Source: an uncultured bacterium
GTDB taxonomy: Bacteria; Verrucomicrobiota; Kiritimatiellia; RFP12; CAIWXQ01
Length of the DNA: 51,451 bases
Assembly (NCBI GenBank): GCA_903861045.1
Contig: CAIOST010000339.1
Location: forward strand, 1-51,451
Direction: 5' to 3'
Notes under the pieces: model-generated
What the model saw: only the letters and a program-made list of their open reading frames with translations
Told to the model about the DNA's origin: nothing
The model's database searches: none
In this document: positions 983 to 27,677 of the stretch, piece after piece
Numbering within the stretch: position 1 is the first letter of the stretch
How the letters are laid out: the number at the start of each line of letters is the position of its first letter
Translations under genes and position numbers: made by a program

Positions 983-1732
983 TTACGATGAAGGTGTTGC
1001 TGCCACCACAGTTATGTTGCGCGTGTTATCAATGCCGCCGAAGACCAGGTGATCCTTTGCCATGTTGGCCAGATCGTCTTTGCGGTTCAACCAGTCAGGC
1101 ATGGCACGGTCGAGCGCCTGCCAGAATTTAGGTCCGTGGTGCTTTTCCATCAGATGAATGAGTTCGTGCATGATGACGTAGTCTATTAACCGAACAGGCA
1201 ACTGAAGAACCCGCCAATTAAACCGAACAATTCCGTTCTTGCTGCACGATCCCCACAGAAACCCAAGATCACCAACCTCAATCTTTTCTGGTTTCCGGGC
1301 GGTATGTCGCGAGAGCCGCTCGACGCGCTGGCTAATCCATTCCGTGCCGGTCTCGAGATACCAGCGACGGAAGTGGGATTCTGCCGGACGGGCATCGCGA
1401 CGCAATGTGAACTGCGTCCCGTCGAATTGTAACGGAAGCGGTTGCTTCGACACAACCTTCAGCCTGAAACGACGCCCCAAATAGCAAAAGCCCTCGCCCG
1501 AAACATATTCCGGTGTGGTTAATCCAGGTGCCACAGATGCTTTTAGCGCCAGTTTACGATATACCCACACCAACTTATTGTTAATCCAGCGGGTGAGATC
1601 TTCGACCGATGTCGCTACGGGAACGTGCGCAACCAATTCAGCGCCACGATCCACCGTTAGCCCCAGCGTCTTGCGACGGGCGCTCCGGCGCACATCAAAT
1701 ACTAAACCATTTAGTTGGACGGTTTCGCTCAT
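983..1732 (-). CDS. YgjP-like (DUF45/M48-family) zinc metallohydrolase, translationally coupled to hsdR
   Basis: HEXXH motif in IMHELIHLMEKHHGPKFW is typical of YgjP/DUF45. Its ATG overlaps the hsdR stop (1729-1732). DUF45 genes commonly follow hsdR. Confidence 0.7.
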   Translation of the reverse strand: MSETVQLNGLVFDVRRSARRKTLGLTVDRGAELVAHVPVATSVEDLTRWINNKLVWVYRKLALKASVAPGLTTPEYVSGEGFCYLGRRFRLKVVSKQPLPLQFDGTQFTLRRDARPAESHFRRWYLETGTEWISQRVERLSRHTARKPEKIEVGDLGFLWGSCSKNGIVRFNWRVLQLPVRLIDYVIMHELIHLMEKHHGPKFWQALDRAMPDWLNRKDDLANMAKDHLVFGGIDNTRNITVVAATPSS

Positions 1733-4700
1733 GAGTTGGTCAGGTTGGAGTGGTTTTCCTTAGCAAGGGCGACGAGACGCTGGGCTAGATCGCGTTCTGT
1801 ACCGGGGCAGCAGATACCGGCGCGGTCGAGATCCCGAACTAAACTCTTGGTCAACAGTTCGCGCATGTCGTCGTTCTTCCAGAAGCCGACTTTACGCACT
1901 TCTTGACGGATGCGCTCTACCATATCCAGTGTAGTCTTAATGGACTTTTCGCGCTGATCCGCATTCTGTTCACGCCCCTTGCCACATTCTTCCAACACAA
2001 GGCGAACGAATGGTACTTGCGCCTTGGCGTCGAGATGCGGGAAATCATTCCGGTCACCCTGGCGTAACTCATCAATATACTTCTTCAGTTCCCGCTCGAG
2101 GGCGTTCCAGTCGTCTTTGAACCGCTGGAGAATCTCCTCCAAGCGCTGGCTCATCTTCCGGGCGTAGGCCGGGTTCTGATTTGAGAAGCCGATGATGTGG
2201 TAGCGGGCGGCGTGTTGCATCTGCGCAGCGCGGGCGCGGCTGCTAGTTTGGGCTTGCAACACCTTTTCAAACTCCGCGTCGGTGATGGCCGTGGGCGGAA
2301 TCTTGGGGTCAACGCCACGCGCCGAAATATGGGCGTTGATGAGCGCCTTTACTTTTTCCGCCACGCCAAATAGATTCAATGACGGGTCGCGATACAAGTT
2401 AGCGGCTACTTTGTTGATGAAGCCTAGCAGTTTGGCGTCGCGAAATACATCGTTCGGCACTTCCGGCCGGTGCTCCAGAATACCCAGCAATTCGTAAAAC
2501 ATGCGCAGTTTGTTAATGAAATCGGCACGTAGCTTCAGGTCTTCAAGCAACTGCACGCAGACATCAACCTGACTCTGCAAATCCGTGATGCCCCGGCCTG
2601 TAAATACCGCGACCGCCCGCGCTCTTCGATCGAGCAATTTGGGCAATTCGACGTTGATGTCAATCAACGCGCCAGCGGTATCATTACCATCGTAATCTTT
2701 AAGCGCGACCTCCAAATGTTGAGCCACACCGATGTAGTCCACCACATAGCCACACTTCTTCTGGCCACAGGTTCGATTCACCCGCGCAATGGCCTGCAAC
2801 AAGTCATGTGCGACGATTTTACGGTCGAGATAAAGCACCTGTTCCACAGGCGCGTCAAAGCCCGTCAGCAACATGTTCATCACAACGAGAATCGTCAGGG
2901 GATCGGTCTTGTCGGTCTTATCCGGAGAAAACTTGCGCTTGAAACGTTTGATGAGTTCCTCTTGTTTACCCTTGTCCGCCCAATCCCACCATGCCTCAGG
3001 ATCGTTATGGTTGCCGGAGAAGACGGCGGCAATCTCCAAGGCGCGAAGCTTGGGCAGTTGCTGATGGATTTGCAGCAGAAACTGCGTCTTGGCATCGAGA
3101 TTATTCGTCTCGTCATCGGTCAACCCCAGCGTGGCGGCAGGTACAGCCTCCAATTCGGAAACCAGTTCCGTCCGCGCCAGCGCAAGTTTATCGAGATAGG
3201 TCATCACCGCCTGCCGGCTCGTGGCTACGATCTGTGCCTTGAAGCCCTCGGGTAAAACCACGCTGGCGAAATGCCGGATCATATCGCGCGCCTTTTGCTC
3301 AATAAGCATAGGCGCCTCCATCACATCGCCTTCGGTCGCATACTTGGCCTTAATAACGGCTAATTCCTTCTGCGTGTATTCACAGAACATATCCTCGAAC
3401 AGGGTGTCGAGGTTGGGCGCGTCCTTGACGATCCCGTCTGCGGTCCGGCCTTCGTAGAGAATCGGCACGGTGGCGCCATCGAGTTCCGCGTCCTGGAGAA
3501 GGTATTTATCAATGTAGTCGCCGAAGATATCTTTCGTCTCCGTCTTTTCACTGTTTAGGATGGGCGTCCCGGTAAAGCCGATGATGGCAGCGTTGGGCAG
3601 CGCTTTGTGGAGGTTGCGATGCAGCGTGCGCGTGTGGGAACGATGCGCTTCGTCCACCAGTACGAGAATTTCCGGAGAATCGTTGAGTAATGGGAATTCC
3701 TCGAACCGAATATTCTCCGTGAAGGTGACGGATTTTTCGACGACTGGCTCGTTGCGGCCTGGCTTCTTCTCCTTGCGAACGATGGTCATGGCCACCTTGT
3801 CGCCGGGTTGATCGCCTGGCTCAGGCAACAGGGCCAGCGCAGCGTCATCCTGCTTGCTGCCAACGGGTTGATACTTTTGCAGCATCGCCATAATGATGTC
3901 CGGCGTGCGTTCGCTGAGCAGGCGTTGGGTCAGAGCCGTCGGTGACTCGCGCGATTTCAAATCCTCGTCTGTCGGACGAACGGCTTCCCCACTCAACTGC
4001 GCTGTCGCGCCAAGTTGGGCCTGCAAGTCCGTGCGGTCGGTCACGACGACAATCTTGAACCGGTTGAGGCGCGGCATCATCCGCATTTTACGCACAAGGA
4101 AGACCATGCTGAGGCTCTTGCCCGAACCTTGCGTGTGCCAGATGATGCCCCCGCGCTGGTCGCGCTCCGCGCCCTGCGCCTTGGTCTGGCCATCCTGTAA
4201 TCTGGCCACGGCCTTGTGAATCGCGCGAAACTGCTGGTAGCGCGCCACCACCTTGCGCGTCTTGCCGTCCACTTGCTGAAACACGGTGAAATTACGGATG
4301 AGATCGAGCAAGTGCGCCGGTCGCAACATGCCGGCGACAAGAATCTGCTGACTCTGCAACGTGGCTCCGAAACCTTCGCGTAAGACATCCGGGCGCTCTT
4401 TGCGATCCCGGAAGAATAGCGGCGTGCCTACCCGGTCGCCATGTTCCGCGCCCAATGTGGCCAATTCCTGGGCGGCTTCTGTCTCGTCCGCGGGCCGGGA
4501 CAACACCCCGAGCTCCTGCGCCACGGTGCTCAATGGCACGGGGCTGGTATCGGCCCATTCCAAATATGCCTCCGGCGGCGCGCCGATGGTCGCCGCTCGC
4601 GACTCAAAGAAATCGCTGGCGATAAGCAACTGGTTGGTATGAAACAGTTTCTCCACGCCCTCGTTCTCGGTGTAGAGCGTGGGGTATATCTCCCGGCGCT

Positions 4701-5262
4701 GGTTGCAATAGCGCAGCAGTTGGTTGATGGCCTCCTGCAACGGGTTCTCTATACCGGGACTTTTGAACTCCGCGACGGACACCGGAATGCCGTTGATGAA
4801 CAGCACCGCATCTGGAATGATGTGGCCACGCCCACTGGTTAGTTCCACCTTGAACTGGTTGATCACGAGAAAATCGTTATTGGCTGGGTTCTCGAAATCT
4901 ATAAAGCAAATGGGCTGCGGGCGGCCGCGTTCCCAGTCCGGCAGGCCTTCCGCCACCGTACCCTTGAGCAAAAGCTGGGTGGCAGCTTGATTGCTCTCCA
5001 TTAACCGGTGTCCGGCAGCCTGCTCCAGATCGCGGATGGCGCGGGCAATGCGCTCGTCATCCAGCCACGGCTGGCCGTCACGCAGGTTGAGTTTGCGAAG
5101 CGCCGCCGCGAGCCGCCCTTTGAGCAAAACCTCACGGAAGTTGGCGCGCTCAGTAAAATCGGGCACGTCCTTGTCGCCCTCAATCCACTGCCAACCCATG
5201 GCCTTGAGTTGCTCGCAGAACGGGCGCTCGGCCAGATCGTATTCCCATTGGATTTTGCTCAT
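1729..5262 (-). CDS. hsdR: Type I restriction enzyme R subunit (HsdR), 1177 aa
   Basis: SF2 helicase motifs: Walker A WHTQGSGKSLSM and DEAH box LVLVDEAHRSH. The N-terminal nuclease region and operon context with hsdM/hsdS also fit. Confidence 0.9.
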   Translation of the reverse strand: MSKIQWEYDLAERPFCEQLKAMGWQWIEGDKDVPDFTERANFREVLLKGRLAAALRKLNLRDGQPWLDDERIARAIRDLEQAAGHRLMESNQAATQLLLKGTVAEGLPDWERGRPQPICFIDFENPANNDFLVINQFKVELTSGRGHIIPDAVLFINGIPVSVAEFKSPGIENPLQEAINQLLRYCNQRREIYPTLYTENEGVEKLFHTNQLLIASDFFESRAATIGAPPEAYLEWADTSPVPLSTVAQELGVLSRPADETEAAQELATLGAEHGDRVGTPLFFRDRKERPDVLREGFGATLQSQQILVAGMLRPAHLLDLIRNFTVFQQVDGKTRKVVARYQQFRAIHKAVARLQDGQTKAQGAERDQRGGIIWHTQGSGKSLSMVFLVRKMRMMPRLNRFKIVVVTDRTDLQAQLGATAQLSGEAVRPTDEDLKSRESPTALTQRLLSERTPDIIMAMLQKYQPVGSKQDDAALALLPEPGDQPGDKVAMTIVRKEKKPGRNEPVVEKSVTFTENIRFEEFPLLNDSPEILVLVDEAHRSHTRTLHRNLHKALPNAAIIGFTGTPILNSEKTETKDIFGDYIDKYLLQDAELDGATVPILYEGRTADGIVKDAPNLDTLFEDMFCEYTQKELAVIKAKYATEGDVMEAPMLIEQKARDMIRHFASVVLPEGFKAQIVATSRQAVMTYLDKLALARTELVSELEAVPAATLGLTDDETNNLDAKTQFLLQIHQQLPKLRALEIAAVFSGNHNDPEAWWDWADKGKQEELIKRFKRKFSPDKTDKTDPLTILVVMNMLLTGFDAPVEQVLYLDRKIVAHDLLQAIARVNRTCGQKKCGYVVDYIGVAQHLEVALKDYDGNDTAGALIDINVELPKLLDRRARAVAVFTGRGITDLQSQVDVCVQLLEDLKLRADFINKLRMFYELLGILEHRPEVPNDVFRDAKLLGFINKVAANLYRDPSLNLFGVAEKVKALINAHISARGVDPKIPPTAITDAEFEKVLQAQTSSRARAAQMQHAARYHIIGFSNQNPAYARKMSQRLEEILQRFKDDWNALERELKKYIDELRQGDRNDFPHLDAKAQVPFVRLVLEECGKGREQNADQREKSIKTTLDMVERIRQEVRKVGFWKNDDMRELLTKSLVRDLDRAGICCPGTERDLAQRLVALAKENHSNLTNS

Positions 5263-6743
5263 GGAACTTTGCGGCCTTTGCTTTGCAACCGTTTTCCAAC
5301 CGCTGTGAGTCTGTAGCTCTGTCGGCTACTTTGCGGTTTGGCAGGAATGGTGCGTTCCAACCAGCCGCCCTCCAGCGCAGGGGCTAAATAGTTCCGTCGG
5401 AAATGCTCACGGTCAGCAAGCTTCAGCCTGGCCTGCAACTTCTCCCTGGACAGCTCCCCCTCAACCACTCGAACGAGCGACTCTACTTCCGGGGTGACTT
5501 CCGGGGTAACTTCCGGGGTGACTTGCGGGGTGACTTGCGGGCTGACTTGCGGGGTGACTTGCGGGGTGACTTGCGGGGTCCGAAAGGTCAGCGTCACCCC
5601 CCGTTCCGCCGTCGAAATCCAAACCGGATCGGGCAGCCCTTGTTTCCGGCACGCCTCCATGATCAGAAAACTCCCCCGTCCCAGTTTCTCCATGAAGCCG
5701 CGCAGGTAGAGCACATGGGCAATGTCGGGGTTGCGCAGGACGGAAAGGTGCCCTTGATGCAACAACGTATCCGGCGTGATGCCCGCCGGAAAGGCTCCGG
5801 AATTCCAGATTTCCAAACGCGTCGGATAGACGTGCACGGCGACTCCGCCCGAGTGCTCGGCGTAATCCCGATGGGCAAAGGCATTGATCAAACCCTCGCG
5901 AATGGCCTCTTCCGGATAGACGCAGGCGTCCTGCCGTTGCGGCTTCTCCTTCGAGAACCGCGCCAGTGTGGGTGTGTTGCGGAGAATGAAAGCGAACAAC
6001 TGGTTGAAGACCGGCATCAGCGGCCCGTCAAAGCTCTTCATGTCCGTAAACTGGTCGCTCGCCTTGTCGTGACTGAACGCCGCAGCCCGCACTCGCACCT
6101 GCGGGAAAACACGCCCCGGTTCGTTGGCAAAAAGCACCACCCCGCCCTGCGTCAACCGGCCAAACTGGGCCAGAGACAGGTCATCCAAAACCGTTTGGGT
6201 GTCGTTCGCATTGCGAAACTGGAACGGCCGGGCCTTCCGGATATCTGCCACGGTCGTCTGCACCTCGACGGTCTCGACATCCGACCCCGTGCCACACGTG
6301 GAGAGGCGTCGCTCCCATCGTTCCGGTTCGGCAGACTTCCGCAACACCATTTCACGGATTTCTGCTGCCCCAGCTTTATGGGTGGCGCTCCCTTCGCGTA
6401 GATAGACCACATCCTCGAAGGCGTATGGCACATCTTTGCCGGCAGGCGCCTCGATCAATACCAGTGCCACACCATCAACCTGCTGCACGCCCACCCACAC
6501 CAGCGCTTTAGGCGAAAGCCTTTCGATCAGCAGTTGCTCCACCCGCCGGGCTTCAGATTCGGCATCCGTAACGCCCACGAGTTTTCCGTTGTCGCCAACA
6601 CCGCAAACCAATGTGCCACCGCCCGCATTCAGAAATCCGCACACCACGCCGCCAATGGCCTTGGGGTTGCCCACGCCAGTCTTGAACTCCACGGCCTGCC
6701 CCTCACCGAGACGAAGCACCTCCCGCAACTTCTCCGCTTTCAC
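5259..6743 (-). CDS. COG2865-type protein: N-terminal AlbA_2/Schlafen-like domain + HATPase_c_4-like domain + TPQV repeat linker + C-terminal wHTH
   Basis: N-terminus GEGQAVEFKTG...GFLNAGGGTLVCGVGDNGKLVGV has the AlbA_2 pattern. EEAIREGLINAFAHRDY...RLEIWNSG has the HATPase_c_4 pattern. It carries 8 tandem TPQV/TPEV repeats. It shares a 4-nt overlap with both neighbours. Confidence 0.7.
   Translation of the reverse strand: MKAEKLREVLRLGEGQAVEFKTGVGNPKAIGGVVCGFLNAGGGTLVCGVGDNGKLVGVTDAESEARRVEQLLIERLSPKALVWVGVQQVDGVALVLIEAPAGKDVPYAFEDVVYLREGSATHKAGAAEIREMVLRKSAEPERWERRLSTCGTGSDVETVEVQTTVADIRKARPFQFRNANDTQTVLDDLSLAQFGRLTQGGVVLFANEPGRVFPQVRVRAAAFSHDKASDQFTDMKSFDGPLMPVFNQLFAFILRNTPTLARFSKEKPQRQDACVYPEEAIREGLINAFAHRDYAEHSGGVAVHVYPTRLEIWNSGAFPAGITPDTLLHQGHLSVLRNPDIAHVLYLRGFMEKLGRGSFLIMEACRKQGLPDPVWISTAERGVTLTFRTPQVTPQVTPQVSPQVTPQVTPEVTPEVTPEVESLVRVVEGELSREKLQARLKLADREHFRRNYLAPALEGGWLERTIPAKPQSSRQSYRLTAVGKRLQSKGRKVP
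5486..5580. repeat. In-frame tandem 12-nt repeat x ~8 (encodes TPQV/TPEV linker) inside the COG2865 gene
   Basis: Plus strand reads cttccggggtga / cttccggggtaa / cttccggggtga / cttgcggggtga ... The unit is a multiple of 3, so copy-number change keeps the frame. Confidence 0.8.
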
Positions 6744-7390
6744 GGTTGGCCTCCCTTCGGGTTGGCAATCACTTTGGACACTTTGACCGGATCGGCGAAG
6801 CTCTCCTTCACAAACGCCTCGACCTCCTGATAGCGGAAGAACTGGGCCGTGGCAAACAATGCCGCATCCTCCGGCTCCTGATATTGCTGCACCCAGTTCC
6901 CCTGCCGCTCGCGTAACGGCCTGTCCGAAAGGATCGCGTCTTCATACATGTCAATCACGCGCAGATCGTCAAGCATGGGCGTCTTCTTCAGGCTCAACCC
7001 CTGCCGCGCCTTCCGATCCGCATAGCCGAGATTCTTCAACAACGCACGCGCAAAGACCACATGGTCATGCGCCAGCACCCAGCGCGGCTTCTTCAACGCG
7101 ACGGCCTTGCGCAACTCCTGATGCGTAATGGAAAGCGCCCCCGGTCGATCCTCCTTGCCGCTGCCATAATTCGGCGTGACCAACCCCAGGAACAAATCGC
7201 ACTTCTCCACCGCCACCAGGCAATTCTCGAACGCCGACCGGTTCGAAAACACCGGCATGGTCCCCTTGTGCGACATCCAGACTTCGTACCCATAGGCCGT
7301 CAGCAACGTGTACAAACGGTTCAGCAACTCCTCGATGCCATAGACCGAGGAGGAGACCATGATGACCAGCTTGTCTCGTTTCGCACTCAT
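6740..7390 (-). CDS. DUF4062-like domain protein (216 aa from Met at 7390; alternative start 7480 gives 246 aa and a 20-nt overlap with the upstream gene)
   Basis: KLVIMVSSSVYGIEELLNRL...CDLFLGLVTPNYGSG...SITHQELRKAVALKKPRWVLAH matches the remembered DUF4062 consensus (vFiSSTf.DL..eR...gRYGs..giSyTe.Ey..A...gkp.l.fl). Its stop overlaps the COG2865 start. Confidence 0.55.
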   Translation of the reverse strand: MSAKRDKLVIMVSSSVYGIEELLNRLYTLLTAYGYEVWMSHKGTMPVFSNRSAFENCLVAVEKCDLFLGLVTPNYGSGKEDRPGALSITHQELRKAVALKKPRWVLAHDHVVFARALLKNLGYADRKARQGLSLKKTPMLDDLRVIDMYEDAILSDRPLRERQGNWVQQYQEPEDAALFATAQFFRYQEVEAFVKESFADPVKVSKVIANPKGGQP

Positions 7391-7460: not shown

Positions 7461-9320
7461 TCACGCCTCTTTCCCCTCATTGGCGTTAATCAACTGACCG
7501 AGATGAAAACCCTTCCAGCAAAGATGCACAATCAACCACCAAAGATAGACGGAAGATGCCTGGTAAAAACCACCTTCCGGCAGGAGGCCATGGGCAGATT
7601 CGTTTCGCAAATTATGCCCGAACCTCTCGATCAATAGACCGCGCAAGTCAAACAGGATGTTAGCACCAATGATTCTTTCGACATCCGGGATCCATAGCAA
7701 TTGGTTCAAGTCACGTTCCTGTTGTGTGCCATCCGAATCCAGCGTTGAGGTAATGATCCCATATTGATTCAACACATGTCGAATGGATGCTTCAACCTGC
7801 GGAATCAGCAAATGGAGCGCGGTTAACCAGTCGCCAAAGAACCCGGCCTGGATGCCGCGCAGATAAATCCCCTCGTGCCCTGGCGGAATGAAAGGGTTGT
7901 TTGTCACGAAGAAGATTAAGTCGCGATGACGAATCACGTGTTCGTCGACTATTGCGTAACGCGCAGGTTCGATATACCATACCGCATGCATGGGCCAGTT
8001 GAGCGTTCGCGCCTGTTGGCAAAGTCGCTTACGCAAGGCCTCCTTTTCCTCTTCTGGATTACCAACGCCTGCGGCAGGAACCGTGTCAGCGACTTTTCCA
8101 TCGTGGTCGATAGATGAAGCACCGGCAATTTTATCGAAGATGGTATTCTTGGTAGCTTCTTGGTGCTGCTGTTGAAGTTTCTCGACATCTGTAGGCTGTG
8201 TGACATTGGCAAACCGTACGAGTGCCGTCTGAAAATCATGCCCACGAACATGGGCAGCCGAACGTTCCTGCGTCACCCTTTCAGCTTCAACAAACTCAGG
8301 ATTCGACAAACTGTCAATCTTGATTGTAGTCAACTCTGACAGGCTTTGCTTCTGCAGTGCAAGGAACCGCCGATGAACGGTTTTGATGCGTTCAGGATTG
8401 GCCTTGGCGCGTCGCAAGGCTTCAACACCCCGACCAACCCAATAAGATGCAAACATGGCACCTTGTGTCGCCAGTCCCTCTTCACCACGGGAAACATTGC
8501 ACTCAGCAGCAGCCAATAGACATGCCTGCGCTTCGGTCTCCTTCTTGGCTACTCGATGCCACTGTTCCGCAAGTAGCCAATACGCCTCCGCAACATGCCA
8601 GTCTTCAGCATCCGCAAACCGCTTGGCCAAACGCTCGGACAATGCCGCGTAATGAACTGCGTCTCCCTCCTTAAGGCCCAACAGTGCCAACATGAGATGA
8701 TGGCAAAGCAACCCTGCCTTTGTGTTGTTCTCATATTCAACGATCGCGGCCTCTAAAGCAGCAACCACCGTTTTTCGTTCCGTTTCGAAACCGCGAATAG
8801 CGGAAATTTGCGCCGCGCGCTCCAAACGTTCAACGTAGGGAGGCCAGAGATCGTCAGTCTTAAGACGCTCGGATGCTTGCAGAAAAGCCAAGATGGCAAT
8901 ACGAGCAGCCTTGAAGTCCTTCTTGGTCACCCAGAGTACATCGGCAACACGTGCACGAAATTCCGGGTCTTGAATCTCTTCCACGATCCCGCTAAGTGCG
9001 GCAAGATCGTCTTCGCACAAATCCTCCGCATTCAGCGTCCTCTTGCCGTTGAAACCGCTCCACATCGAGCCGTATGGATTTCCTCGAATATCGTAATTCG
9101 GGTAGAACGAGGCAACGACGTTGAGAAATGAAAAGACGCGAAACCCCAGGTCGTCTTTCGCGGTCGTACATTCCCTCGCTGCGGCAGTAAAGCCTTCACA
9201 GAGCCCGTAACACTCTTTGTTCTTTGCCTGCCACACCCGAGACTGCCAATCGCTTCGACGCAGATCGTCTGCCGTTACGCCAAAACTGGATTGTTTCGTT
9301 TCGCCCATGTCAAACAACAC
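7461..9320 (-). CDS. 619-aa protein with C-terminal HEPN-type motif (Rx4HG; NLR...HG as in DUF4209); N-terminal ~500 aa unassigned
   Basis: C-terminus reads ...RFGHNLRNESAHGLLPEGG... It overlaps the hsdS stop by 11 nt. Codon usage and composition are typical of real genes here. Confidence 0.55.
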   Translation of the reverse strand: MLFDMGETKQSSFGVTADDLRRSDWQSRVWQAKNKECYGLCEGFTAAARECTTAKDDLGFRVFSFLNVVASFYPNYDIRGNPYGSMWSGFNGKRTLNAEDLCEDDLAALSGIVEEIQDPEFRARVADVLWVTKKDFKAARIAILAFLQASERLKTDDLWPPYVERLERAAQISAIRGFETERKTVVAALEAAIVEYENNTKAGLLCHHLMLALLGLKEGDAVHYAALSERLAKRFADAEDWHVAEAYWLLAEQWHRVAKKETEAQACLLAAAECNVSRGEEGLATQGAMFASYWVGRGVEALRRAKANPERIKTVHRRFLALQKQSLSELTTIKIDSLSNPEFVEAERVTQERSAAHVRGHDFQTALVRFANVTQPTDVEKLQQQHQEATKNTIFDKIAGASSIDHDGKVADTVPAAGVGNPEEEKEALRKRLCQQARTLNWPMHAVWYIEPARYAIVDEHVIRHRDLIFFVTNNPFIPPGHEGIYLRGIQAGFFGDWLTALHLLIPQVEASIRHVLNQYGIITSTLDSDGTQQERDLNQLLWIPDVERIIGANILFDLRGLLIERFGHNLRNESAHGLLPEGGFYQASSVYLWWLIVHLCWKGFHLGQLINANEGKEA

Positions 9321-10548
9321 CTTCCGGCACCCTCACACGACCGGTGAGCAGGTCGGTCATCAGGCCGGATTTCAGTTGTTGGAGCTTCCTTAACTCAACC
9401 TCTTCCGACGCAATCGTAGCTTCAGAAGCGAGCATAGCGTTGGCCGCCGTTCGTTGCTCCTCGCTTGGCGGAACTGCAATCTTTAGTCTTTTGAAATACG
9501 GGAGACCAATCGTCTTGATGGTGCTGCCCATCGCAATCGCCTCAAACTGCGGCTTGTTGTGCTGAAGCCAGTAATACAGAAAGAGGTTGTACAGCCGTTT
9601 TCCGCACCGCCACGCCATGAAATGCTGACTGACCGCCATTTCCTCGGCGAGTATCGCACTCTTCCCGATTCCAGCATCACGGGACAGAATGACAGTTCCG
9701 GCCGAGTGCTTCACGGCTGACGAGTTCTCGATTCCGAGTTCGCTGATTTGCTTGTCAGTCTCTGAGATGTAAATGCGGTCGAGTTTGTCTGAGTCAGCCA
9801 ACGACACCCACTTGATGCCCCCATCCCAACAAGAGGGGACATCTTTAGTCGGCGTATGGCCGCTGCCACGGAGGGCGACATCGTCTAAAAGACAAATATC
9901 CCAGTCCTTCGGGAGTTGGCCGAGGGGGGAGTCTTGGAATTGTTCGGGGTGGGCGATGGGGTCGCGGAGTTGGCCGTTGTGGTCGAGGCCGCGGGTGAGG
10001 AGATCGTGGAGCAGGCCGGCGCGCACCTGCCGCAACTTCGCAATCACGGCCTCCGTCTTCGCAATCGCGTCGTCTACCGTGTCCAGAACGGTGGCGATGC
10101 GGGATTGCTCGATTTCTGAAGAAGGTTTGAAAACCCAATGACGTTTCAAGTCGTTCCAGGACGTGCGCGGCATCTTGGTACCAACCCCGGTTGCCGACGC
10201 AGCGGCAAATACGCGCTCCCATTGAAAAACATGGGCGGCATATTGTGGAAGGACACCGTTGCGAGCTCGTAGCACAAGGATATCTGTTGAGCAGTAACCA
10301 GAGAACGGGGCTTTCAGGCTTTTTCGAAGATTTGGTCGGAGTTTGCCAAACAGAATGTCGTCCTTGGAAAAGCAGGAGTTTATGCTGACCGAAGCACTGC
10401 TGGGCAAAGAACCCAGCAAGTGGGGTTGGCCTTGCGCAATGTGCTCAAGTCCGATGTAACGGAGACTCGGGTCTTTGTTGCTTGCAACCTTTTCTGGTCG
10501 CAGTTCAACCAGTGCATCGAGACCGACTGTGGGAGGGCACGCACTCAT
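9310..10548 (-). CDS. hsdS: Type I R-M specificity subunit (HsdS), two target-recognition domains
   Basis: 412 aa with a bipartite repeat structure and conserved central and C-terminal helices (…LRQVRAGLLHDLLTRG…, …LQQLKSGLMTDLLTGRV). Its ATG overlaps the hsdM stop. Confidence 0.85.
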   Translation of the reverse strand: MSACPPTVGLDALVELRPEKVASNKDPSLRYIGLEHIAQGQPHLLGSLPSSASVSINSCFSKDDILFGKLRPNLRKSLKAPFSGYCSTDILVLRARNGVLPQYAAHVFQWERVFAAASATGVGTKMPRTSWNDLKRHWVFKPSSEIEQSRIATVLDTVDDAIAKTEAVIAKLRQVRAGLLHDLLTRGLDHNGQLRDPIAHPEQFQDSPLGQLPKDWDICLLDDVALRGSGHTPTKDVPSCWDGGIKWVSLADSDKLDRIYISETDKQISELGIENSSAVKHSAGTVILSRDAGIGKSAILAEEMAVSQHFMAWRCGKRLYNLFLYYWLQHNKPQFEAIAMGSTIKTIGLPYFKRLKIAVPPSEEQRTAANAMLASEATIASEEVELRKLQQLKSGLMTDLLTGRVRVPEGVV

Positions 10549-13205
10549 CTGTAGGACAATGCCTCCAAGAAAGTCTCCAGATTAGATTCAGCACTTGCAC
10601 GTTCTGAGCGCAGAGCAGTCAACGTCACCCGATACTTGTCCCAAAGACCCTCAATGTAACGCACCAACTCGTGCCGTTTCTCGGCCACGGCGGCGTCGAG
10701 GCCGACCTGCACATCCTGCGCGAAGAGTTCGAGGACGAGGTCGCGTTTCTCGGTGTCGTCGAATCCGGTACAGCGCAGTTTGAGTTCGTTCACAAACTCC
10801 GCGGTGAGCGTGCGGAAAAGGGCGCGGGCTTCGGCGAGTTGTTCCTTGATCGTTTCGTGGGGGACGAGGGCCATTTCGAATGCGGCCAGTTGATCGAGGA
10901 TCGGCTGGAGTTTGCGCTTTAACTCGTTTGACGTGGCAACGGGTTTGCGGACGGCGCGGAGCGCCGTCCCTACCTTTCGTTCCCGCTCCTGTTTGGAAAG
11001 CTCCTTGAGATCGGCCTTGTGCTCGGCCTTGAGTTCGCGGATCTGCCGCTCGATATCTTTGGGGTAGTTCCAGTTCTCCAATTCCTCCTCGTCGAGGTCG
11101 TCGGGCACGTTGCTCTGCTCGAAGGCTTCCTTCTCGCCCTTGAGCCGGGCGATGTCGGACTTGGCGGCGGCGATGCGTTCCAGATAGTCGGTCATGGTGC
11201 GACGGACGAGCTTGTGCGCGAAGGGGTCGAGCACCGGGCCGGCGGCTTCGTCGTCTTCCACGGCGTCGGCGATGGCGTCCACCCAGCCGTCTATGACGCC
11301 AGGGAAGCCGTTTTCGAGCAGGGTCTTGAAGTCAGGGAGCGTGTCGGTCCACCAGGTGGCGATGACGCCGGCGAGTTTGAAGCGATCGAGGGTGTTCAAG
11401 GGCAGCAGCGCGGCGACAAAGGTTTCGAGGAACTCGGCGCGAACCTTGTTGAGCTTGCGATGTTCGGGCAGTTTGGCCAGACGCGGGGAGTGTTCTGCCC
11501 ACCACTGTCCCAGGTGTTGGCGCACGGTCGCAAGGGTCTTTTGAACCCCGGGATCGCTTTCGACCAGCGGGCGGATGGCGGCGCGTTCCGGGAGCGCGGG
11601 GGCGAAGTCGTAGTAGAGCGTGTCGCCTGTGCGCTTGGCGAAGGCGTGGGAAGGCTTGAAGCCGAGGGCGTCGAACAACGCACGGTTGTCCGTCACCTCA
11701 GCCACGGGCACGCCGCCAAGTAGGTGGGCGCGCACGTCGTGCGGCTCTGGTGGTGGGGAGTTGTCCACGTAGCGGCGGATGTTAAGATTGAAATCGTTGG
11801 CTTCGCTGGCGATTTCGGTGAGGGGGACAACGCGGGCGTAGCCGGGGATATCCTGATAGTTATCGAAGGTGGAGACAACCTTTTCGACGTGCTCCGGGCG
11901 GAGGTAGTTTTGCGCGCGGCCAGCATGGAACTCGGCGTCCGCATTGATGAACAGCACCTTGCCCCGACGTTCGGCGGGCTTTTTCGCGTTAGGTGCGTGA
12001 CCGGTGAGGTTGGGGCGCATGATGAGAATACACGCCGGAATGCCCGCGCCGTAGAACAGATTCTGGGGCAAGCCGATGACGGCCTCGATGAGGTCCTGTT
12101 CGAGGAACTTTCTGCGGATCTCCTTTTCCGCCCCGCCGCGAAAGAGCACGCCGTGAGGCATGACCGTGGCAACCATGCCGCCTGGCTTACAGACGGCAAG
12201 CATGTGCTGGGCGAACATGAGGTCGCCCTTCTTGCCGGAGGTTGGACACCAGCCCCAGCGGAAACGCTCGGGAAACTCCATGTTGTTGCGCGTGTAGTTC
12301 TGGCTGAAAGGCGGATTGGCGATGACACGGTCGAATCGTTCCAGTTCGCCAGCATCCTTATGCAGCGGGTGCAGCAAAGTGTCCTGAAGTTGAATATCTG
12401 CGCCGGTGACGCCGTGCAGGAGCATATTCAATTTACAGATGGACCAAGCCGAGGCGTCGTTAACCTGGCCGCAGAGGCGAAGGTTGGTGGGGTCGCCACC
12501 GGATTGCTCGATGAACTCGCGGCTGATGATAAGCATGCCGCCCGAACCGCAGGTGGGGTCATAGACAGATAGGCCGGGCGCGGGTTTGAGGATACGCACC
12601 ATGAGACGGATGACATCGCGCGGCGTGTAGAAATCTCCACCCTTTTTGCCCGCCGACTCGGCGAAATTGTTGATGAGGAACTCGTAGGCCGCGCCCAGCA
12701 GGTCGGAGAACTGAAAATCCTCATTGCGCAGCCTGTAGCGGCTAAAGATACGGCTGACCAGGTCTTTGCAACAGTCGTCCGAAACGATGCGTTTGCCGCT
12801 CTCGACGGCCATGAAGAAGATACGATCGAGGACATGCTCCAACTGCGGGTTGGATTCGCGGAGCGCCGCGAGCGCTTTGTCAAGGACCGAGCCATACACT
12901 ACGTTGGCGTCGCCTAGTTTGTCCTTGAGGTAACCCCATCGAGCGCAATCGGGGACAAAGAAACCATCGTAGTAATCAGGATTTTCGCCGTACTGTTTCT
13001 CCGCTGCATCTTTCACCATGCCTTGTTCGACCTTCCGGCCGACAATATTCTCGCGTTCGGCCTCAAAGACGTCCGAACACCGCTTCAGGAAAAGCATGCC
13101 GAAGATGTAATCCTTGTAAGTGGCCGCATCGAGTCCCTCCTGGCGAAGTCGGTCAGCAGCCGACATGAGATGTCGTTCGAGTTTGGCGAGGGAAAGGCGT
13201 GGCAT
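10545..13205 (-). CDS. hsdM: Type I R-M N6-adenine DNA methyltransferase subunit (HsdM), unusually long (886 aa) with ~350-aa C-terminal coiled-coil extension
   Basis: HsdM_N-like start (ERHLMSAADRLR...YKDYIFGMLFLKRCSDVFE), SAM motif DPTCGSGGML and catalytic NPPF (IANPPFSQ). Confidence 0.88.
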   Translation of the reverse strand: MPRLSLAKLERHLMSAADRLRQEGLDAATYKDYIFGMLFLKRCSDVFEAERENIVGRKVEQGMVKDAAEKQYGENPDYYDGFFVPDCARWGYLKDKLGDANVVYGSVLDKALAALRESNPQLEHVLDRIFFMAVESGKRIVSDDCCKDLVSRIFSRYRLRNEDFQFSDLLGAAYEFLINNFAESAGKKGGDFYTPRDVIRLMVRILKPAPGLSVYDPTCGSGGMLIISREFIEQSGGDPTNLRLCGQVNDASAWSICKLNMLLHGVTGADIQLQDTLLHPLHKDAGELERFDRVIANPPFSQNYTRNNMEFPERFRWGWCPTSGKKGDLMFAQHMLAVCKPGGMVATVMPHGVLFRGGAEKEIRRKFLEQDLIEAVIGLPQNLFYGAGIPACILIMRPNLTGHAPNAKKPAERRGKVLFINADAEFHAGRAQNYLRPEHVEKVVSTFDNYQDIPGYARVVPLTEIASEANDFNLNIRRYVDNSPPPEPHDVRAHLLGGVPVAEVTDNRALFDALGFKPSHAFAKRTGDTLYYDFAPALPERAAIRPLVESDPGVQKTLATVRQHLGQWWAEHSPRLAKLPEHRKLNKVRAEFLETFVAALLPLNTLDRFKLAGVIATWWTDTLPDFKTLLENGFPGVIDGWVDAIADAVEDDEAAGPVLDPFAHKLVRRTMTDYLERIAAAKSDIARLKGEKEAFEQSNVPDDLDEEELENWNYPKDIERQIRELKAEHKADLKELSKQERERKVGTALRAVRKPVATSNELKRKLQPILDQLAAFEMALVPHETIKEQLAEARALFRTLTAEFVNELKLRCTGFDDTEKRDLVLELFAQDVQVGLDAAVAEKRHELVRYIEGLWDKYRVTLTALRSERASAESNLETFLEALSYR

Positions 13206-19031: not shown

Positions 19032-19364
19032 ATGATTGCGATGCAGGATGTCCTAAATAGAATTGTGGCCGTCGAGGCGGAGGCCCGTCGGCAGGTGGAG
19101 GCGGCCCAAGCGCAAGCCGCGCAGATTCTGGCGCGTGCCCGCCTTGCTGCCCAAGCCATGCAGGCACAAACGCACCAGGCCGTCCAGCTCGAGACAGCCA
19201 ACCTGCTGGCCACGCGACTCGCCGAGGCCACCCAGGAGCGGGATCGGCGCCTCGCGTTAGCCGCCGCGACCATCGCGGCACAGATCCGCCTGGATGACGA
19301 CACCGTGCGCCAGGTGGTAGATGCCGCCCTGCGGTGCGTCTGCGGCGAGGAGGTGCGGCCGTGA
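19032..19364 (+). CDS. atpG: V/A-type ATPase peripheral-stalk subunit G/H-like (small coiled-coil)
   Basis: 110-aa Ala/Gln/Arg-rich coiled-coil protein, first gene of the V-ATPase operon. It resembles Thermus-type AtpG. Confidence 0.5.
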   Translation: MIAMQDVLNRIVAVEAEARRQVEAAQAQAAQILARARLAAQAMQAQTHQAVQLETANLLATRLAEATQERDRRLALAAATIAAQIRLDDDTVRQVVDAALRCVCGEEVRP

Positions 19365-20404
19365 TGCGCACCCCCACGCTTGTTGATCTGGACTACTTGC
19401 TCGCACGCCTCCATGCGCGGCGCAGTCGGCTGGCGGAGGGCGCGCGGCTGGAGGGGCTCTGCCGCCTCAGGACGCTGCCGGAGTTGGCGCTCGCCCTGGA
19501 GCCCGGTTGGGTGACGCAGTCCGCCCGTGAGCTCCAGCGCACGCTAGTTACGCGCCTGGTACAAGAACTGACGGAGGTGCTGGCGCACTTGGAACGAAGT
19601 GGCCGCCATCTTGTAAGCAGCCTGCTAGCCCGGTTCCAGATCGAGAATCTAAAAGTCCTGCTCCGGGCGCATTGCCAGCACCTTTCGGCGGATGTGGTGC
19701 GTGCGTTCCTTGTGCCGCTGCCGGCGCCAATAATGCCGGATATGGCGGCTTTACTGGCGGCACCAACTTTTCCCGACTTTGTCGCCGCGCTACCACACGG
19801 CCGGGCGCGCGACCGGTTGGCCATGCCATGGCCCGACGAGCTCACGCCGTTTGCGCCGTTTCTGCGCGAAGCCGCCTTGGACGCCGGGTATTTTGCGGAG
19901 TTACTGACCGCATATGACCGGCTTGAACCAACGGAGCAGGCATACGTTGCACCCCTGCTCTTTCATGAACAATCAGCCGCACAATTCATGATGGCGTTAC
20001 GCGGCCGGTTCCATTACCGGCTGCCGGCGGCAGCTCTGCTGCGTGTCGCGATCGCGGCTGAAAACAGCGCCCAGACGCGTTGGTTTCGTGCCTTGCTGAG
20101 GGCCCCGGATTTTGCCACGGCCGCCGCTCTGGGGTACGGCGTAGTGTTGGACGATGGGGACACCCCGCTGACCGATATGGCGCAGGTGGAGATTCTGACG
20201 TGGCGGCGCTATTTGCGCTTAGCCAACCAGGCCTTGCGACGCAGCCACATGGGCATTGGCGCCGTGGCCGGCTACTTCGGGTTGCGGCGCGTGGAGGTTG
20301 CCAACCTCATCACGCTTACGGAGGGTATCCGCCTGGGCATGGACGAACCGCACCTCCACGCCCGGTTGATCACACCCGGGGAACCGGAGGTCGCGCATGC
20401 TTAG
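19334..20404 (+). CDS. atpC: V/A-type ATPase subunit C (V0 d subunit)
   Basis: DLDYLLARLHARRSRL... is colinear with Thermus AtpC (DFAYLNARVRVRRG...). About 350 aa. Confidence 0.7.
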   Translation: MRLRRGGAAVMRTPTLVDLDYLLARLHARRSRLAEGARLEGLCRLRTLPELALALEPGWVTQSARELQRTLVTRLVQELTEVLAHLERSGRHLVSSLLARFQIENLKVLLRAHCQHLSADVVRAFLVPLPAPIMPDMAALLAAPTFPDFVAALPHGRARDRLAMPWPDELTPFAPFLREAALDAGYFAELLTAYDRLEPTEQAYVAPLLFHEQSAAQFMMALRGRFHYRLPAAALLRVAIAAENSAQTRWFRALLRAPDFATAAALGYGVVLDDGDTPLTDMAQVEILTWRRYLRLANQALRRSHMGIGAVAGYFGLRRVEVANLITLTEGIRLGMDEPHLHARLITPGEPEVAHA

Positions 20405-22361
20405 GCCAGAGCCCATGGCGCACGTACAGCTCCTACTGCTAGCGCGCGACGAGCGTGCCGTTTTGCGGCAACTGGGGTCCGACGGGGTGATCCAACTGTC
20501 CGGTTCGTCGCCCGAAACGTCCATAGCGCCGCTGTCGCGACAGAATCGCGCCACGGAGTTAGCCCGCCTCGAGCAGCTCGCGGTCCGCCTCGCAAGCCTT
20601 GGCGAGGCCTTGGCTCTACCGGCGTCCGCACCGTGCGTGGCGGGATTCGAACCAACCATTGAACAAGTAGAGCGCACGCTCCAAGCCATGGAGCGACAGC
20701 TCGGCACGCGGCCCGCCCAGCGCCAGCAACTCGCGCAGCATCTTAGCGAAAAACAGTCGGCCTACGCGCAGGCGCAGCTCGCCCGCGAATTGGCGCTGCC
20801 CGTGGCGACGGCGGATTCTTCGTTTCTGTATTTTGTGCTCGGCTCGCGGCCTGTAAACGGCACCATCCGGTTAGTCGCTGACATGTCGGCCGTTGTGATT
20901 CCCCTGACAGCACAGGGTGGACGGCAGCGCGTGCTGGCCGTCGTCAGGCGTAGCGCACGCGCGGCGTTGGACCTGGCGTTGCAGCAGGCGGGGTTTCAGC
21001 AGGAGCAACTCCCCCGCGCGTGGCTCGACACGACTGATGCCGCCTGGGAGGATATGCAACGCGACTGCGAACAAGCGCATGCACAACTGCAACAGGCGGA
21101 CGAGCAGCTGCAACAACTGGCAAAGGAACTCGCCCCAAGCTGGGCCGCCGCCGCGTGTGCCATCCGCACCGAGCGCTGCCTACTGGAGACCGCAGCCAAG
21201 TTGCCACGCACGACGGCGGTCACCATGATTACGGGCTGGGTGCCGCAAGCGTCGGCCCCGGCGATAACAGGCTCGTTACGCGCACTGACACAGGGACGCT
21301 GCTGCCTTGCGGTAGCCCCCCCGACCGGCGACGAGGCCGAGGATGTCCCGGTCCTGATCCGGCACGCGCGCCTGCTGCGCCCTTTTGCTGCGCTGGTGCG
21401 CGGCTGCGGTTTGCCGCACTATTGGGAAGTGGAGCCCACGCTGTTCGTGGCCATTAGCTTTGTCCTCATGTTTGGCATGATGTTTGGTGATGTCGGCCAT
21501 GGCTTCATTTTGGCGGCGAGCGGACTGGTCGCCCTATGGGCGGGCCGGCGCGAAAACGTACGTGATGCCGGGGTCTTGCTGCTGAGCGGCGGGTGCGCGA
21601 GTATGCTGTTCGGGGTACTTTACGGCAGCTACTTTGGTCTGGCGGCAGCCCGCCCATATGCACTCTGGTGCGACCCCCTGGATGGTGACCCGGTGCGGCT
21701 GATGGCGCTGGCGGTCGGCGTCGGGATCGTCATGATCACCTTGGGGCTGCTGCTGAACATTATCAACCGCTGCCGCCGCGGCGACATCATCGGCGCCCTG
21801 ATGGGAGGGTGCGGCGTGCTTGGCATTATGTTCTACTGGGGCGCACTGACGCTACTGGTCAGTCCGGATATCCTGCGTTCATCCCATTTGCTAGCGGCGG
21901 CGCTGGGATTGTTCCTCGGCGTCCCCATGATCGGCTGGCTGCTCCGCCGGCCGCTCGAACTGTGGCACGCGCGGCGCGTGGGGATACCGTGTGAGCCACA
22001 GGGTTGGTTCGCCGCACTGGCAGAAACGCTGGTGGACGTTTTCGAGGTTGCCTTGAGCTATCTCGCCAACACGATCAGCTTCGTGCGTCTGGCCGCCTAT
22101 GCCATGAGCCATGCCGCGCTGCTGCTAGCCGCCTTTCTGCTCGCCGAGGCGGTGCGCGGGTTACCGGGCGGGCACGTCTGGGCGATCCTCGTGATCATCT
22201 TCGGCAACCTGGGCGCGCTACTCCTGGAAGGCCTGATCGCCGCGATGCAGGCCTTGCGTCTGGAATATTACGAATTTTTTAGCAAGTTCTATGCCGGCGG
22301 CGGGAAGGCCTTTACCCCCTTCCGCCTGCCGGTTAACAGCGTCATGGCACGTGTGCCCTGA
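20397..22361 (+). CDS. atpI: V/A-type ATPase subunit I (a subunit, membrane)
   Basis: 654 aa, with an N-terminal cytoplasmic coiled coil then multiple TM helices, including the conserved Arg-containing helix (…SFVRLAAYAMSHA…). Confidence 0.8.
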   Translation: MLRPEPMAHVQLLLLARDERAVLRQLGSDGVIQLSGSSPETSIAPLSRQNRATELARLEQLAVRLASLGEALALPASAPCVAGFEPTIEQVERTLQAMERQLGTRPAQRQQLAQHLSEKQSAYAQAQLARELALPVATADSSFLYFVLGSRPVNGTIRLVADMSAVVIPLTAQGGRQRVLAVVRRSARAALDLALQQAGFQQEQLPRAWLDTTDAAWEDMQRDCEQAHAQLQQADEQLQQLAKELAPSWAAAACAIRTERCLLETAAKLPRTTAVTMITGWVPQASAPAITGSLRALTQGRCCLAVAPPTGDEAEDVPVLIRHARLLRPFAALVRGCGLPHYWEVEPTLFVAISFVLMFGMMFGDVGHGFILAASGLVALWAGRRENVRDAGVLLLSGGCASMLFGVLYGSYFGLAAARPYALWCDPLDGDPVRLMALAVGVGIVMITLGLLLNIINRCRRGDIIGALMGGCGVLGIMFYWGALTLLVSPDILRSSHLLAAALGLFLGVPMIGWLLRRPLELWHARRVGIPCEPQGWFAALAETLVDVFEVALSYLANTISFVRLAAYAMSHAALLLAAFLLAEAVRGLPGGHVWAILVIIFGNLGALLLEGLIAAMQALRLEYYEFFSKFYAGGGKAFTPFRLPVNSVMARVP

Positions 22362-22379
22362 CGCAGCGGAGGATCACGC

Positions 22380-22721
22380 ATGCAAGCGACGCGAACGAGG
22401 GGTTGGTCAGTCGGTACGATCGTTACCGGGCTAGTGCTGCTGGGCTCGGCGGCCATGGCCAGCGAGGCCGGCAGTGCGGCAAGCCCGGTGGAAGCGGGGA
22501 GCGTCCATCGCACCGTCGGCTTGGGCATAGCGGCGGCGCTGGCCATAGCGATCAGCGTGCTAGGCGCTGGCCACGCGGTCGGCAAGATCGGTGCGGCCGC
22601 CATGGGCGCGGCAGCGGAAAAACCGGAACTGCTGACACGCAGTATCCTGTTCGTGGCTCTGGCCGAGGGGCTAGCCGTGCTGGGTTTTGCCGTAGCCATG
22701 ATGCTGATACAGAAGATCTGA
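22380..22721 (+). CDS. atpK: V/A-type ATPase proteolipid subunit K (c ring)
   Basis: 113-aa hairpin proteolipid with Gly-rich helices and the conserved carboxylate in LAEGLAVLG. Confidence 0.8.
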   Translation: MQATRTRGWSVGTIVTGLVLLGSAAMASEAGSAASPVEAGSVHRTVGLGIAAALAIAISVLGAGHAVGKIGAAAMGAAAEKPELLTRSILFVALAEGLAVLGFAVAMMLIQKI

Positions 22722-22776
22722 AACCATGCCAGGCGCTCGCAGCAGACTCAGGGTTGTGTCTCAGGAATAATTCTGC

Positions 22777-23130
22777 ATGAAATTCTACTGTATTGCTGAT
22801 GAAGACACCGTGCGCGGCTTTCGTCTGTCCGGGGTGGACGGGACCGTGGCGACCTCTGCCGAGGATGCCGCCAGGACACTAGCCACGGCTGCCGCACGCC
22901 CCGATTGCGGCGTCATCATTCTCACCGAGCCATGCGCCGCAGGCATCCGACCGCTGGTGACACAATTGCGACTGGAGCGCGACCGACCCTTGATCGTTGA
23001 AATCCCAGGACCCGCAGGCCCCCTGCCCGGTAACAAGCGCATATGGCGCCTTGTGCAGGAGGCCGTCGGTCTGTCACTGGAGGCAGAGAAAGGAGCCGCG
23101 GATGTCCCCATCCTCCGACCACGCCCCTGA
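22777..23130 (+). CDS. atpF: V/A-type ATPase subunit F
   Basis: MKFYCIADEDTVRGFRLSGVDG... matches the typical AtpF start (I.vIGd.dtv.GFrLaGi). Confidence 0.75.
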   Translation: MKFYCIADEDTVRGFRLSGVDGTVATSAEDAARTLATAAARPDCGVIILTEPCAAGIRPLVTQLRLERDRPLIVEIPGPAGPLPGNKRIWRLVQEAVGLSLEAEKGAADVPILRPRP

Positions 23131-23755
23131 CCTGCTTTGCGAAGAACTTCTGGCGGAGGCCGCCCGGCAAAGCGCGGTTATTCTGGCCAGTGCGCAGGCC
23201 GAGGCCACGACCCTATTCACGGCGGCGGTCACGGCGGCGGCGGAGTTCCGCCAGCAACGGATCGCCGCATCGCAGGCCGAAGCTACGCAGCGTTGCGAAG
23301 CCATTCTGGCTACGGTAGCACTCGAAACGCACCGGTTGCGGGCGACCCGGGTTGAGGAATGCCTGGCTGGCATCCGTACTACCATCCAGCAGCGCATTCA
23401 AGCGACCAGCTATGATCCCCGTGCGGTGATCATAGCCCTGGCAGCTCATGCGGCCCGGAGAATGACAGGCAGTGCCCTGGTGCTGAAGCTATCGCCAGCG
23501 GGGTGGGCCGCGCTAACCAAGGACGATGTGACAGAGATCGGTCGGCGCGCGGGGCGAGAGGCAACCGTCTTCACCCTCGCGGTGGATGCCACCATGGTGG
23601 ATGGCGGGGTGTTGCTCGAGGACAGCGAGGGACGACAGACGTGGGACAACCGTCTGTGCGCCCGTTTGGAGCGCTTGTGGCCGGCATTGCGCACACAGGT
23701 GGCCGTTCAAACCAGATTGCTTTATGATGGGCCAGCAACCGGAGACGCACGATGA
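23102..23755 (+). CDS. atpE: V/A-type ATPase subunit E
   Basis: ~218 aa with an N-terminal coiled coil (LLAEAARQSAVILASAQAEA) and a C-terminal globular part. Start taken at the internal Met. It overlaps the F 3' end in another frame. Confidence 0.65.
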   Translation: MSPSSDHAPDLLCEELLAEAARQSAVILASAQAEATTLFTAAVTAAAEFRQQRIAASQAEATQRCEAILATVALETHRLRATRVEECLAGIRTTIQQRIQATSYDPRAVIIALAAHAARRMTGSALVLKLSPAGWAALTKDDVTEIGRRAGREATVFTLAVDATMVDGGVLLEDSEGRQTWDNRLCARLERLWPALRTQVAVQTRLLYDGPATGDAR

Positions 23756-26951: not shown

Positions 26952-27027
26952 AAGTAACGGCACGTTACGTAGTCTTCGTGAACGGCGTGGCAAATCACGG
27001 CCACGACGTTACCGCGCGAGGGATGGC

Positions 27028-27657: not shown

Positions 27658-27677
27658 GATGGAAAACAACCGCCCGC

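Follow-up and report, generated by a model that had tools for sequence, protein, structure and literature searches.

Introduction

The C6orf70 family of HEPN domains, with which the Pfam family DUF4209 is equated, was described by Anantharaman et al. 2013 (PMC3710099) as one that “occurs in R-M related operons” (R-M, restriction-modification) and in TPR fusions, and its bacterial members were predicted to be catalytically active. Payne et al. 2024 (10.1101/2024.01.29.577857) later collected as PDC candidates those genes that are found inside BREX, DISARM or type I R-M operons (‘guilt-by-embedding’); the PDCs are predicted candidates that lay outside the set of systems tested in that work, and they are called unvalidated in 10.1101/2025.01.08.631726. 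Here we analyse a protein that falls into both groups. It combines an N-terminal DUF7380 domain with a C-terminal DUF4209 HEPN domain and is encoded within a type I R-M operon of an uncultured bacterium of the Verrucomicrobiota (Kiritimatiellia; RFP12; CAIWXQ01), on the minus strand of a 51,451-nucleotide stretch (contig CAIOST010000339.1, positions 1 to 51,451, assembly GCA_903861045.1) that is referred to as a whole as the window. The HEPN protein is not a new kind of system. It adds one member to a family that had been predicted in silico in 2013 and again in 2024, and its domain assignment as well as its “embedded in R-M” setting had been published before.

Single-gene defence has been reported for HEPN proteins encoded within defence operons, such as HEC-08, which joins a DUF3644 HEPN domain to zinc ribbons and loses its activity on mutation of the Rx4-6H histidine (10.1101/2024.01.29.577857), and DS-11, which joins CBS and HEPN domains and loses its activity on mutation of the HEPN catalytic residues (10.1101/2025.01.08.631726). 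For the window protein, the evidence set out below points with moderate probability to a soluble, single-chain, self-contained latent HEPN ribonuclease (RNase) for abortive-infection defence.

Sequence and structural features of the HEPN protein

In Pfam searches the C-terminal part of the protein matched DUF4209 (PF13910, EMARD_N in precomputed Pfam annotations) with 47.5 bits against a cut-off of 22.3 (E=2e-12), at amino acids (aa) 509–599 of 619 and profile positions 1–88 of 89, and the N-terminal part matched DUF7380 (PF24098) with 131.9 bits against a cut-off of 27 (E=2.8e-38). The PADLOC profile PDC-S39 (PDLC05011) matched over almost the whole length, residues 15–603 aligning with profile positions 8–580 of 595 (E=9.5e-160). 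No named system in PADLOC and no NCBIfam model matched the HEPN protein. The original prediction, made from the DNA letters and their translations, had anticipated DUF4209 on the last ~100 aa, which was borne out by a match above the Pfam cut-off to a family that is classed as C6orf70-type HEPN in PMC3710099; its view that the N-terminal region could not be assigned to any domain was superseded, since the DUF7380 domain occupies aa 12–174 of 619 (8799..9287, minus strand).

The gene lies in an uninterrupted open reading frame (ORF) at 7461–9320 on the minus strand, a strand that the original prediction had left unstated, with 619 codons counted from a GTG at 9320, as had been proposed. The likelier start, however, is the ATG at 9308, because an identical database protein (P0001) was called at 615 aa and homologues start there; the coding sequence, as judged from the ORF list, P0001 and PDC-S39, would then run from 7461 to 9308 and encode 615 aa. 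Residue numbers given here are those of the 615-aa form (add 4 for the 619-aa numbering) except where “of 619” is stated. The hsdS stop codon is at 9312–9310 and the ATG lies 1 nucleotide (nt) beyond it (TGAcATG), whereas the GTG start would give an 11-nt overlap with hsdS on the same strand. The close coupling to hsdS that had been claimed thus holds under either start, and from this arrangement the two genes appear to be translationally coupled. The previously noted segment HNLRNESAHG was located at residues 565–574 (569–578 of 619), 41 residues from the C-terminus rather than ~35. A supposed excess of Arg, Ala and Pro in antisense ORFs was not recovered, the summed fraction of R, A, P and G being 0.25–0.31 in the overlapping ORFs (two antisense and one nested on the same strand in another frame) against 0.28 in the gene itself.

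The HEPN hallmarks listed in PMC3710099 are an Rx4-6H motif ending helix 3, a polar residue after the arginine, an acidic residue in helix 2 (often within Ex3[KR]) and an insert between helices 2 and 3. In the window protein the HEPN domain spans aa 476–600 of 615 (7509..7883, minus strand), and its translation contains a predicted catalytic Rx4H motif, R568-N-E-S-A-H573, at the end of HEPN helix 3 (7590..7607, minus strand) and an Ex3[KR] motif as defined in that study, E506-A-S-I-R510, in HEPN helix 2 (7779..7793, minus strand). These positions are retained across a family of ~30% overall identity: R568 and H573 were kept in 265/265 family sequences covering the site, residue 569, the polar position after the arginine, was N in 251 and H in 10 sequences, and E506 and R510 of the helix-2 Ex3R motif were found in 267/269 and 268/269 sequences, respectively. 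A 58-sequence alignment (~30% identity) had seven invariant columns only, including R510, R568, H573 and G574.

A full-length AlphaFold2 model with a predicted local distance difference test score (pLDDT) of 88.7 placed the Ex3R motif on the helix formed by residues 494–515 and the Rx4H motif at the end of the helix formed by residues 549–572. In this predicted model the C-terminal domain has the four-helix up-and-down bundle of HEPN domains (helices 479–490, 494–515, 549–572 and 584–614), with a beta-hairpin inserted after helix 2 and before helix 3; the Rx4H motif is followed by a long final helix. In a structural comparison of the C-terminal model the best matches were the HEPN toxins 7ae2, 5yep and 8xdj, and the next were AbiA, Csm6, sacsin, LsoA, RnlA, Las1 and MtlR, with DrrA (6yx5, rank 8) and other non-HEPN chains interspersed. 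A Foldseek search of the C-terminal model against the PDB gave nothing significant, the best hit being Csm6 at E=0.66. The original reading of the C-terminus as an Rx4H HEPN domain is sustained by the Pfam DUF4209 match, by R568 and H573, which turned out to be as invariant as that reading supposed, and by a predicted fold in which the anticipated HEPN core is seen both in the modelled helices and in the toxins at the head of the structural matches. No segment of transmembrane strength was detected in the protein, the maximum 19-residue Kyte-Doolittle mean of 1.09 falling below the usual ~1.6 in what is a crude test.

The N-terminal ~415 aa look like a TPR-like helical solenoid that begins with DUF7380. 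The middle all-helical region (aa 176–415 of 615; 8064..8783, minus strand), a putative sensor or regulatory part, is TPR/alpha-SNAP-like together with the end of DUF7380, and a search of PDB sequences with the family profile gave a weak alpha-SNAP match only (positions 132–265, E=0.06). Mean pairwise identity was 0.30 for residues 1–175, 0.27 for residues 176–415 and 0.47 for the HEPN domain (476–600), so that conservation is highest in the HEPN domain and lowest in the front end, a pattern expected of a conserved effector joined to a faster-evolving sensor. A role for the N-terminal ~500 aa as sensor or regulator, already considered in the original prediction, is a reasonable hypothesis. Within DUF7380, R120, D123 and W126 (in the helix ‘RARxADxLW’) and R164 were present in 262–268 of 270 sequences of an otherwise ~30% identical domain, matching the HEPN catalytic residues in degree of conservation; these four residues may form a latch or serve as a binding site for a ligand or a partner. 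The idea that DUF7380 is a degenerate second HEPN domain, derived by internal duplication, was rejected on hhalign probabilities of <3%. The HEPN protein contains no Walker A motif and has no Pfam match to AAA_13 or any other NTPase family.

Distribution and gene neighbourhoods of the family

An exhaustive profile search returned 6,058 clusters (50% identity) at E<=0.001, with 2,177 at E<=1e-30. The best 150 clusters consisted mostly of proteins of ~580–700 aa aligning end to end, about seven being shorter fragments. The closest relatives are in Verrucomicrobiota, and others were found in Proteobacteria, Firmicutes, Cyanobacteria, Chloroflexota, Acidobacteriota, Nitrospirota and Armatimonadota. 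The family is also carried on mobile elements. Homologues were present on 32 plasmid records, 16 of them conjugative; a haloarchaeal plasmid and Klebsiella conjugative plasmids are among the carriers. Two P2-type coliphage records carry family members that both retain Rx4H and Ex3R, namely vB_EcoM-569R9 (4023–5954) and P2-EC46 (ORF612, in a record that contains the gene alone with no flanks). In the P2-like phage vB_EcoM-569R9 the homologue lies between gpA and gpQ, an interval that is a documented P2 anti-phage hotspot (old/tin) (PMC9122126).

Gene context was assessed in 33 genome loci where the family gene has 5 kb or more of flanking sequence on each side, with one metagenomic locus (L011) considered in addition. 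Type I R-M genes were found within 10 kb of the gene in 8 of the 33 loci, and in 5 it was embedded directly after hsdS and before hsdR, counts that are lower bounds because detection relied on similarity to the Hsd proteins of the window. The metagenomic locus has the same embedded layout as the window. In all embedded loci (the window, L011, L017, L018, L021, L027 and L029) the family member is the first gene after hsdS, its spacing ranging between a 4-nt overlap and a 12-nt gap; at a further locus (L040) a 383-aa ORF whose identity as hsdS is unconfirmed lies directly upstream, and at two others (L013 and L047) the family gene follows hsdR instead. The cargo that comes after the family gene varies, comprising an AAA_13 ABC ATPase in L011 and L027, a GmrSD+DUF5655 protein in L017 and L021, and a HATPase_c_4/winged helix-turn-helix protein in L017.

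Four of these R-M backbones are related (the window, L011, L027 and L029), with HsdM 79–80%, HsdR 79–86% and the YgjP-like protein 68–78% identical. In each of them the slot holds a family member, the members being only 40–68% identical, and the other cargo differs. Closely related backbones with HEPN genes of such lower identity suggest either replacement of the cassette or a much faster divergence of the embedded gene.

Settings outside type I R-M operons were also defence-related or mobile. Family members stood alone beside GmrSD and RES genes, on an element with relaxase and type IV secretion system genes, and, at another locus, next to genes for an AbiU2-HEPN protein, SNF2 helicases, a Dnd-associated protein and a PLD-like protein. 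The idea that the family has a conserved partner or antitoxin was rejected on a Pfam survey of 46 loci, whose 127 neighbours were distributed over 132 Pfam families, none of them with more than 3 occurrences.

Some neighbourhoods contained further genes of note. The AAA_13 ABC ATPase after the HEPN gene, 743–766 aa long and of the Pfam family of PrrC/RloC-type proteins, is encoded at 12024–14255 in L011 and at 11755–14055 in L027, so that two candidate second-line genes would stand side by side in those operons. A type IV restriction gene with GmrSD_N, GmrSD_C and DUF5655 domains lies immediately downstream of the family gene in Actomonas aquatica (L002/L003), L017 and L021, three unrelated loci; it was the commonest single neighbour (3/127) and is split into two ORFs in L021. 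In a locus from Armatimonadota (L038, 9983–13779), two tandem family paralogues both have the motif R and H, which makes a heterodimeric HEPN pair possible. At nine Nostoc loci (L048–L054, L066 and L068) an ORF of ~110–144 aa and the stop of the HEPN gene share 4 nt; the ORF is a PIN domain by Pfam in L048, the one locus checked, and the upstream genes encode the large and small subunits of an aconitase-family enzyme.

The type I R-M operon in the window

The gene order in the window is hsdM, hsdS, HEPN gene, DUF4062 gene, SLFN protein gene, hsdR and YgjP-like gene, all on the minus strand, with 4-nt overlaps between successive genes from the DUF4062 gene on. The first gene of the operon, hsdM (10545..13205), encodes an 886-aa type I methyltransferase (Pfam HsdM_N and N6_Mtase; PADLOC MTase_I, E=7.7e-264), and is followed by hsdS (9310..10548), encoding a 412-aa specificity subunit (Pfam Methylase_S; PADLOC Specificity_I, E=2.4e-84). 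Beyond the HEPN gene are the genes, as called on a twin contig and assigned by Pfam, for a 216-aa DUF4062 protein (6740..7390) and a 494-aa protein with SLFN AlbA_2, HATPase_c_4 and Fic-like_C domains (5259..6743). The 1177-aa type I restriction subunit is encoded by hsdR (1729..5262; Pfam HSDR_N, SWI2_SNF2 and T1R_D3-like; PADLOC REase_I, E=6.4e-111), and the last gene of the unit, which overlaps the hsdR stop, encodes a YgjP-like metallopeptidase (983..1732; Pfam PF01863, E=8.5e-48). On these assignments the HEPN gene shares the hsdS–hsdR slot of an intact type I R-M operon with two other cargo genes. Counts of promoter-like and terminator-like sites within the operon were not above the shuffled expectation.

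The GC content of the HEPN gene is 51.9%, the lowest of the unit, the other operon genes having 53.5–60.5%. The R-M unit forms a lower-GC insert, since it lies in an ordinary chromosomal backbone at 62–67% GC, with mfd upstream of the operon and chromosomal housekeeping genes in the remainder of the window.

With regard to the other genes of the unit, the DUF4062/SLFN pair is a separate cassette, because the same pair was found apart from the HEPN gene in L022 (10453–12443, opposite strand; 44% and 33% identity). The DUF4062 protein had no PADLOC match, and its SLFN-type partner weakly matched Argonaute-associated models. The HsdM of the window is unusually long, and its region ~484–886 has no Pfam match, but the full-length PADLOC MTase_I profile spans this region. 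A YgjP-like gene is also found directly after hsdR in L011, L017, L027 and L029, a recurrence that gives it the appearance of a standard fourth part of the type I R-M lineage to which the window operon belongs. Elsewhere in the window (19334–30638), a V/A-type ATPase operon (subunits C, I, E, A, B and D; plus strand) is followed by a fused DctQM and a DctP TRAP transporter (minus strand).

Discussion

On the reading that we favour, the N-terminal ~415 aa, made up of DUF7380 and the TPR/alpha-SNAP-like solenoid, would keep the HEPN domain inactive and double as a sensor. A phage-derived cue would free the HEPN domain, two HEPN domains would pair to form a composite Rx4H site, and metal-independent cleavage of RNA would leave 2',3'-cyclic phosphate ends; translation would then halt and the infection abort. 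The protein would act on its own, without a partner gene.

Several points weigh against this reading. The dimerisation, the substrate and the trigger of the predicted RNase are what we infer; confidence in the isolated-domain model is lowest at the catalytic loop, with pLDDT <50 at residues 570–574; and PDB sequence searches, with the single sequence and with the family profile, gave no HEPN protein. A simple sensor-scaffold picture leaves the near-universal R120, D123, W126 and R164 unexplained. The R-M context says little about mechanism, 76% of the well-flanked loci having no type I R-M gene nearby. Our literature search found no experimental study of any DUF4209, DUF7380 or PDC-S39 member, although the four validated HEPN systems of DefensePredictor might include one, and the papers naming PDC-S39 merely list it among PADLOC matches.

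The position of the gene invites comparison with PrrC. The protein might stay silent while bound to the surrounding type I R-M complex and fire its RNase only once the complex has been disabled by an anti-restriction protein of a phage; the link to R-M would then be functional and more than a handy place for insertion. The gene does fill the slot that PrrC has within EcoprrI (hsdMSR). Its place directly after hsdS in every embedded case (from a 4-nt overlap to a gap of at most 12 nt), and the retention of a family member in the slot of all four related backbones while other cargo differs, are in keeping with such a guarding role. Yet 25 of the 33 well-flanked loci lack type I R-M genes over the 10 kb around the gene, even if this reflects a lower bound on the association, and copies occur alone on plasmids, in the P2 prophage hotspot and beside unrelated defence genes. 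The protein also lacks the ABC ATPase that forms the regulatory module of PrrC and RloC, as judged from the missing AAA_13 match and Walker A motif, and in L013 and L047 the gene comes after hsdR. Dependence on the R-M complex therefore seems unlikely to us. In this R-M lineage guarding could also be achieved without an NTPase, if the DUF7380/TPR-like end, through R120, D123, W126 and R164, docked on HsdM–HsdS or bound a small ligand and were released by anti-restriction proteins, a variant to which we likewise give a low probability; if it were true, a slot kept in four operons, filled by genes of 40–68% identity against 79–86% for the Hsd proteins, would have the look of an arms-race sensor.

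A role outside phage defence was also considered, with the protein acting as a selfish or addiction toxin, or as a housekeeping or stress RNA-processing enzyme that rides in mobile islands. HEPN domains also serve in toxin-antitoxin systems and RNA processing, for example in Las1, Ire1 and the eukaryotic C6orf70 homologue (PMC3710099), the top structural matches are toxins of HEPN/MNT pairs, and no defence phenotype has been reported. Such a role would however sit poorly with the lack of a conserved antitoxin-like neighbour and with a distribution that is patchy, horizontally mobile and low in GC rather than that of a core-genome gene; enrichment beside restriction and abortive-infection genes, and presence in the P2 defence hotspot, argue further for defence, and we hold this possibility to be improbable. 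Some HEPN families are non-catalytic (PMC3710099), and the domain could in principle be a catalytically dead module for binding or regulation only, as in MtlR or in HEPN domains fused to nucleotidyltransferases. Non-catalytic families, however, are typically without Rx4-6H (PMC3710099), whereas virtually all members of this family, at ~30% identity, retain the R and the H along with Ex3R and the polar residue that follows the R, which makes a dead domain very improbable. The self-contained latent RNase for abortive infection remains our preferred interpretation.

The wider relevance of the locus lies in the family that it represents. With more than 6,000 clusters at 50% identity, this family spans bacteria, at least one archaeal plasmid, conjugative Klebsiella plasmids and E. 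coli P2-like prophages, and the DUF4209 family is the proposed prokaryotic source of the HEPN domain of human ERMARD/C6orf70. The locus reveals no new principle. It is a clean example in an intact type I R-M operon, suited to asking whether PDC-S39 defends and whether embedded HEPN proteins guard restriction.

Comparison with described HEPN systems

The HEPN/MNT toxins that lead the structural matches (7ae2, 5yep and 8xdj) are stand-alone proteins of ~130 aa that are neutralised by an adjacent nucleotidyltransferase, whereas the corresponding domain of the window protein is fused behind ~475 aa. The window neighbours of the gene are hsdS and the DUF4062 gene, and no nucleotidyltransferase is among the 25 most frequent neighbour families listed, so that an MNT antitoxin was not found. 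HEC-08 and DS-11 are like the window protein in having a HEPN effector and a non-HEPN region in one polypeptide, although the HEPN families and the accessory domains differ; HEC-08 and the window protein both structurally match SO_3166 (5YEP).

With PrrC and RloC the window protein shares a gene for a HEPN-type RNase embedded in an hsdMSR operon and the concept of a second line of defence. PrrC and RloC, however, have an N-terminal ABC ATPase of their own, and the window protein has a TPR-like solenoid with no P-loop in its place. PrrC genes are embedded almost exclusively in type I R-M systems (10.1101/2024.01.29.577857), whereas the DUF7380+DUF4209 family is mostly found elsewhere.

A Pfam score above the cut-off, the conserved Rx4H motif, the TPR-like part and the R-M operon setting are all shared with the C6orf70 (ERMARD)/DUF4209 family. 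Its eukaryotic ERMARD prototype is described with one transmembrane segment and a location in the endoplasmic reticulum, in contrast to the window protein with no segment of transmembrane strength, and the description of DUF4209 in PMC3710099 includes neither a DUF7380 domain nor a fixed ~600-aa architecture. With PDC-S39 nothing structural differs: the window protein is a member of that group, matched over its full length and encoded by a single gene embedded in a type I R-M operon.

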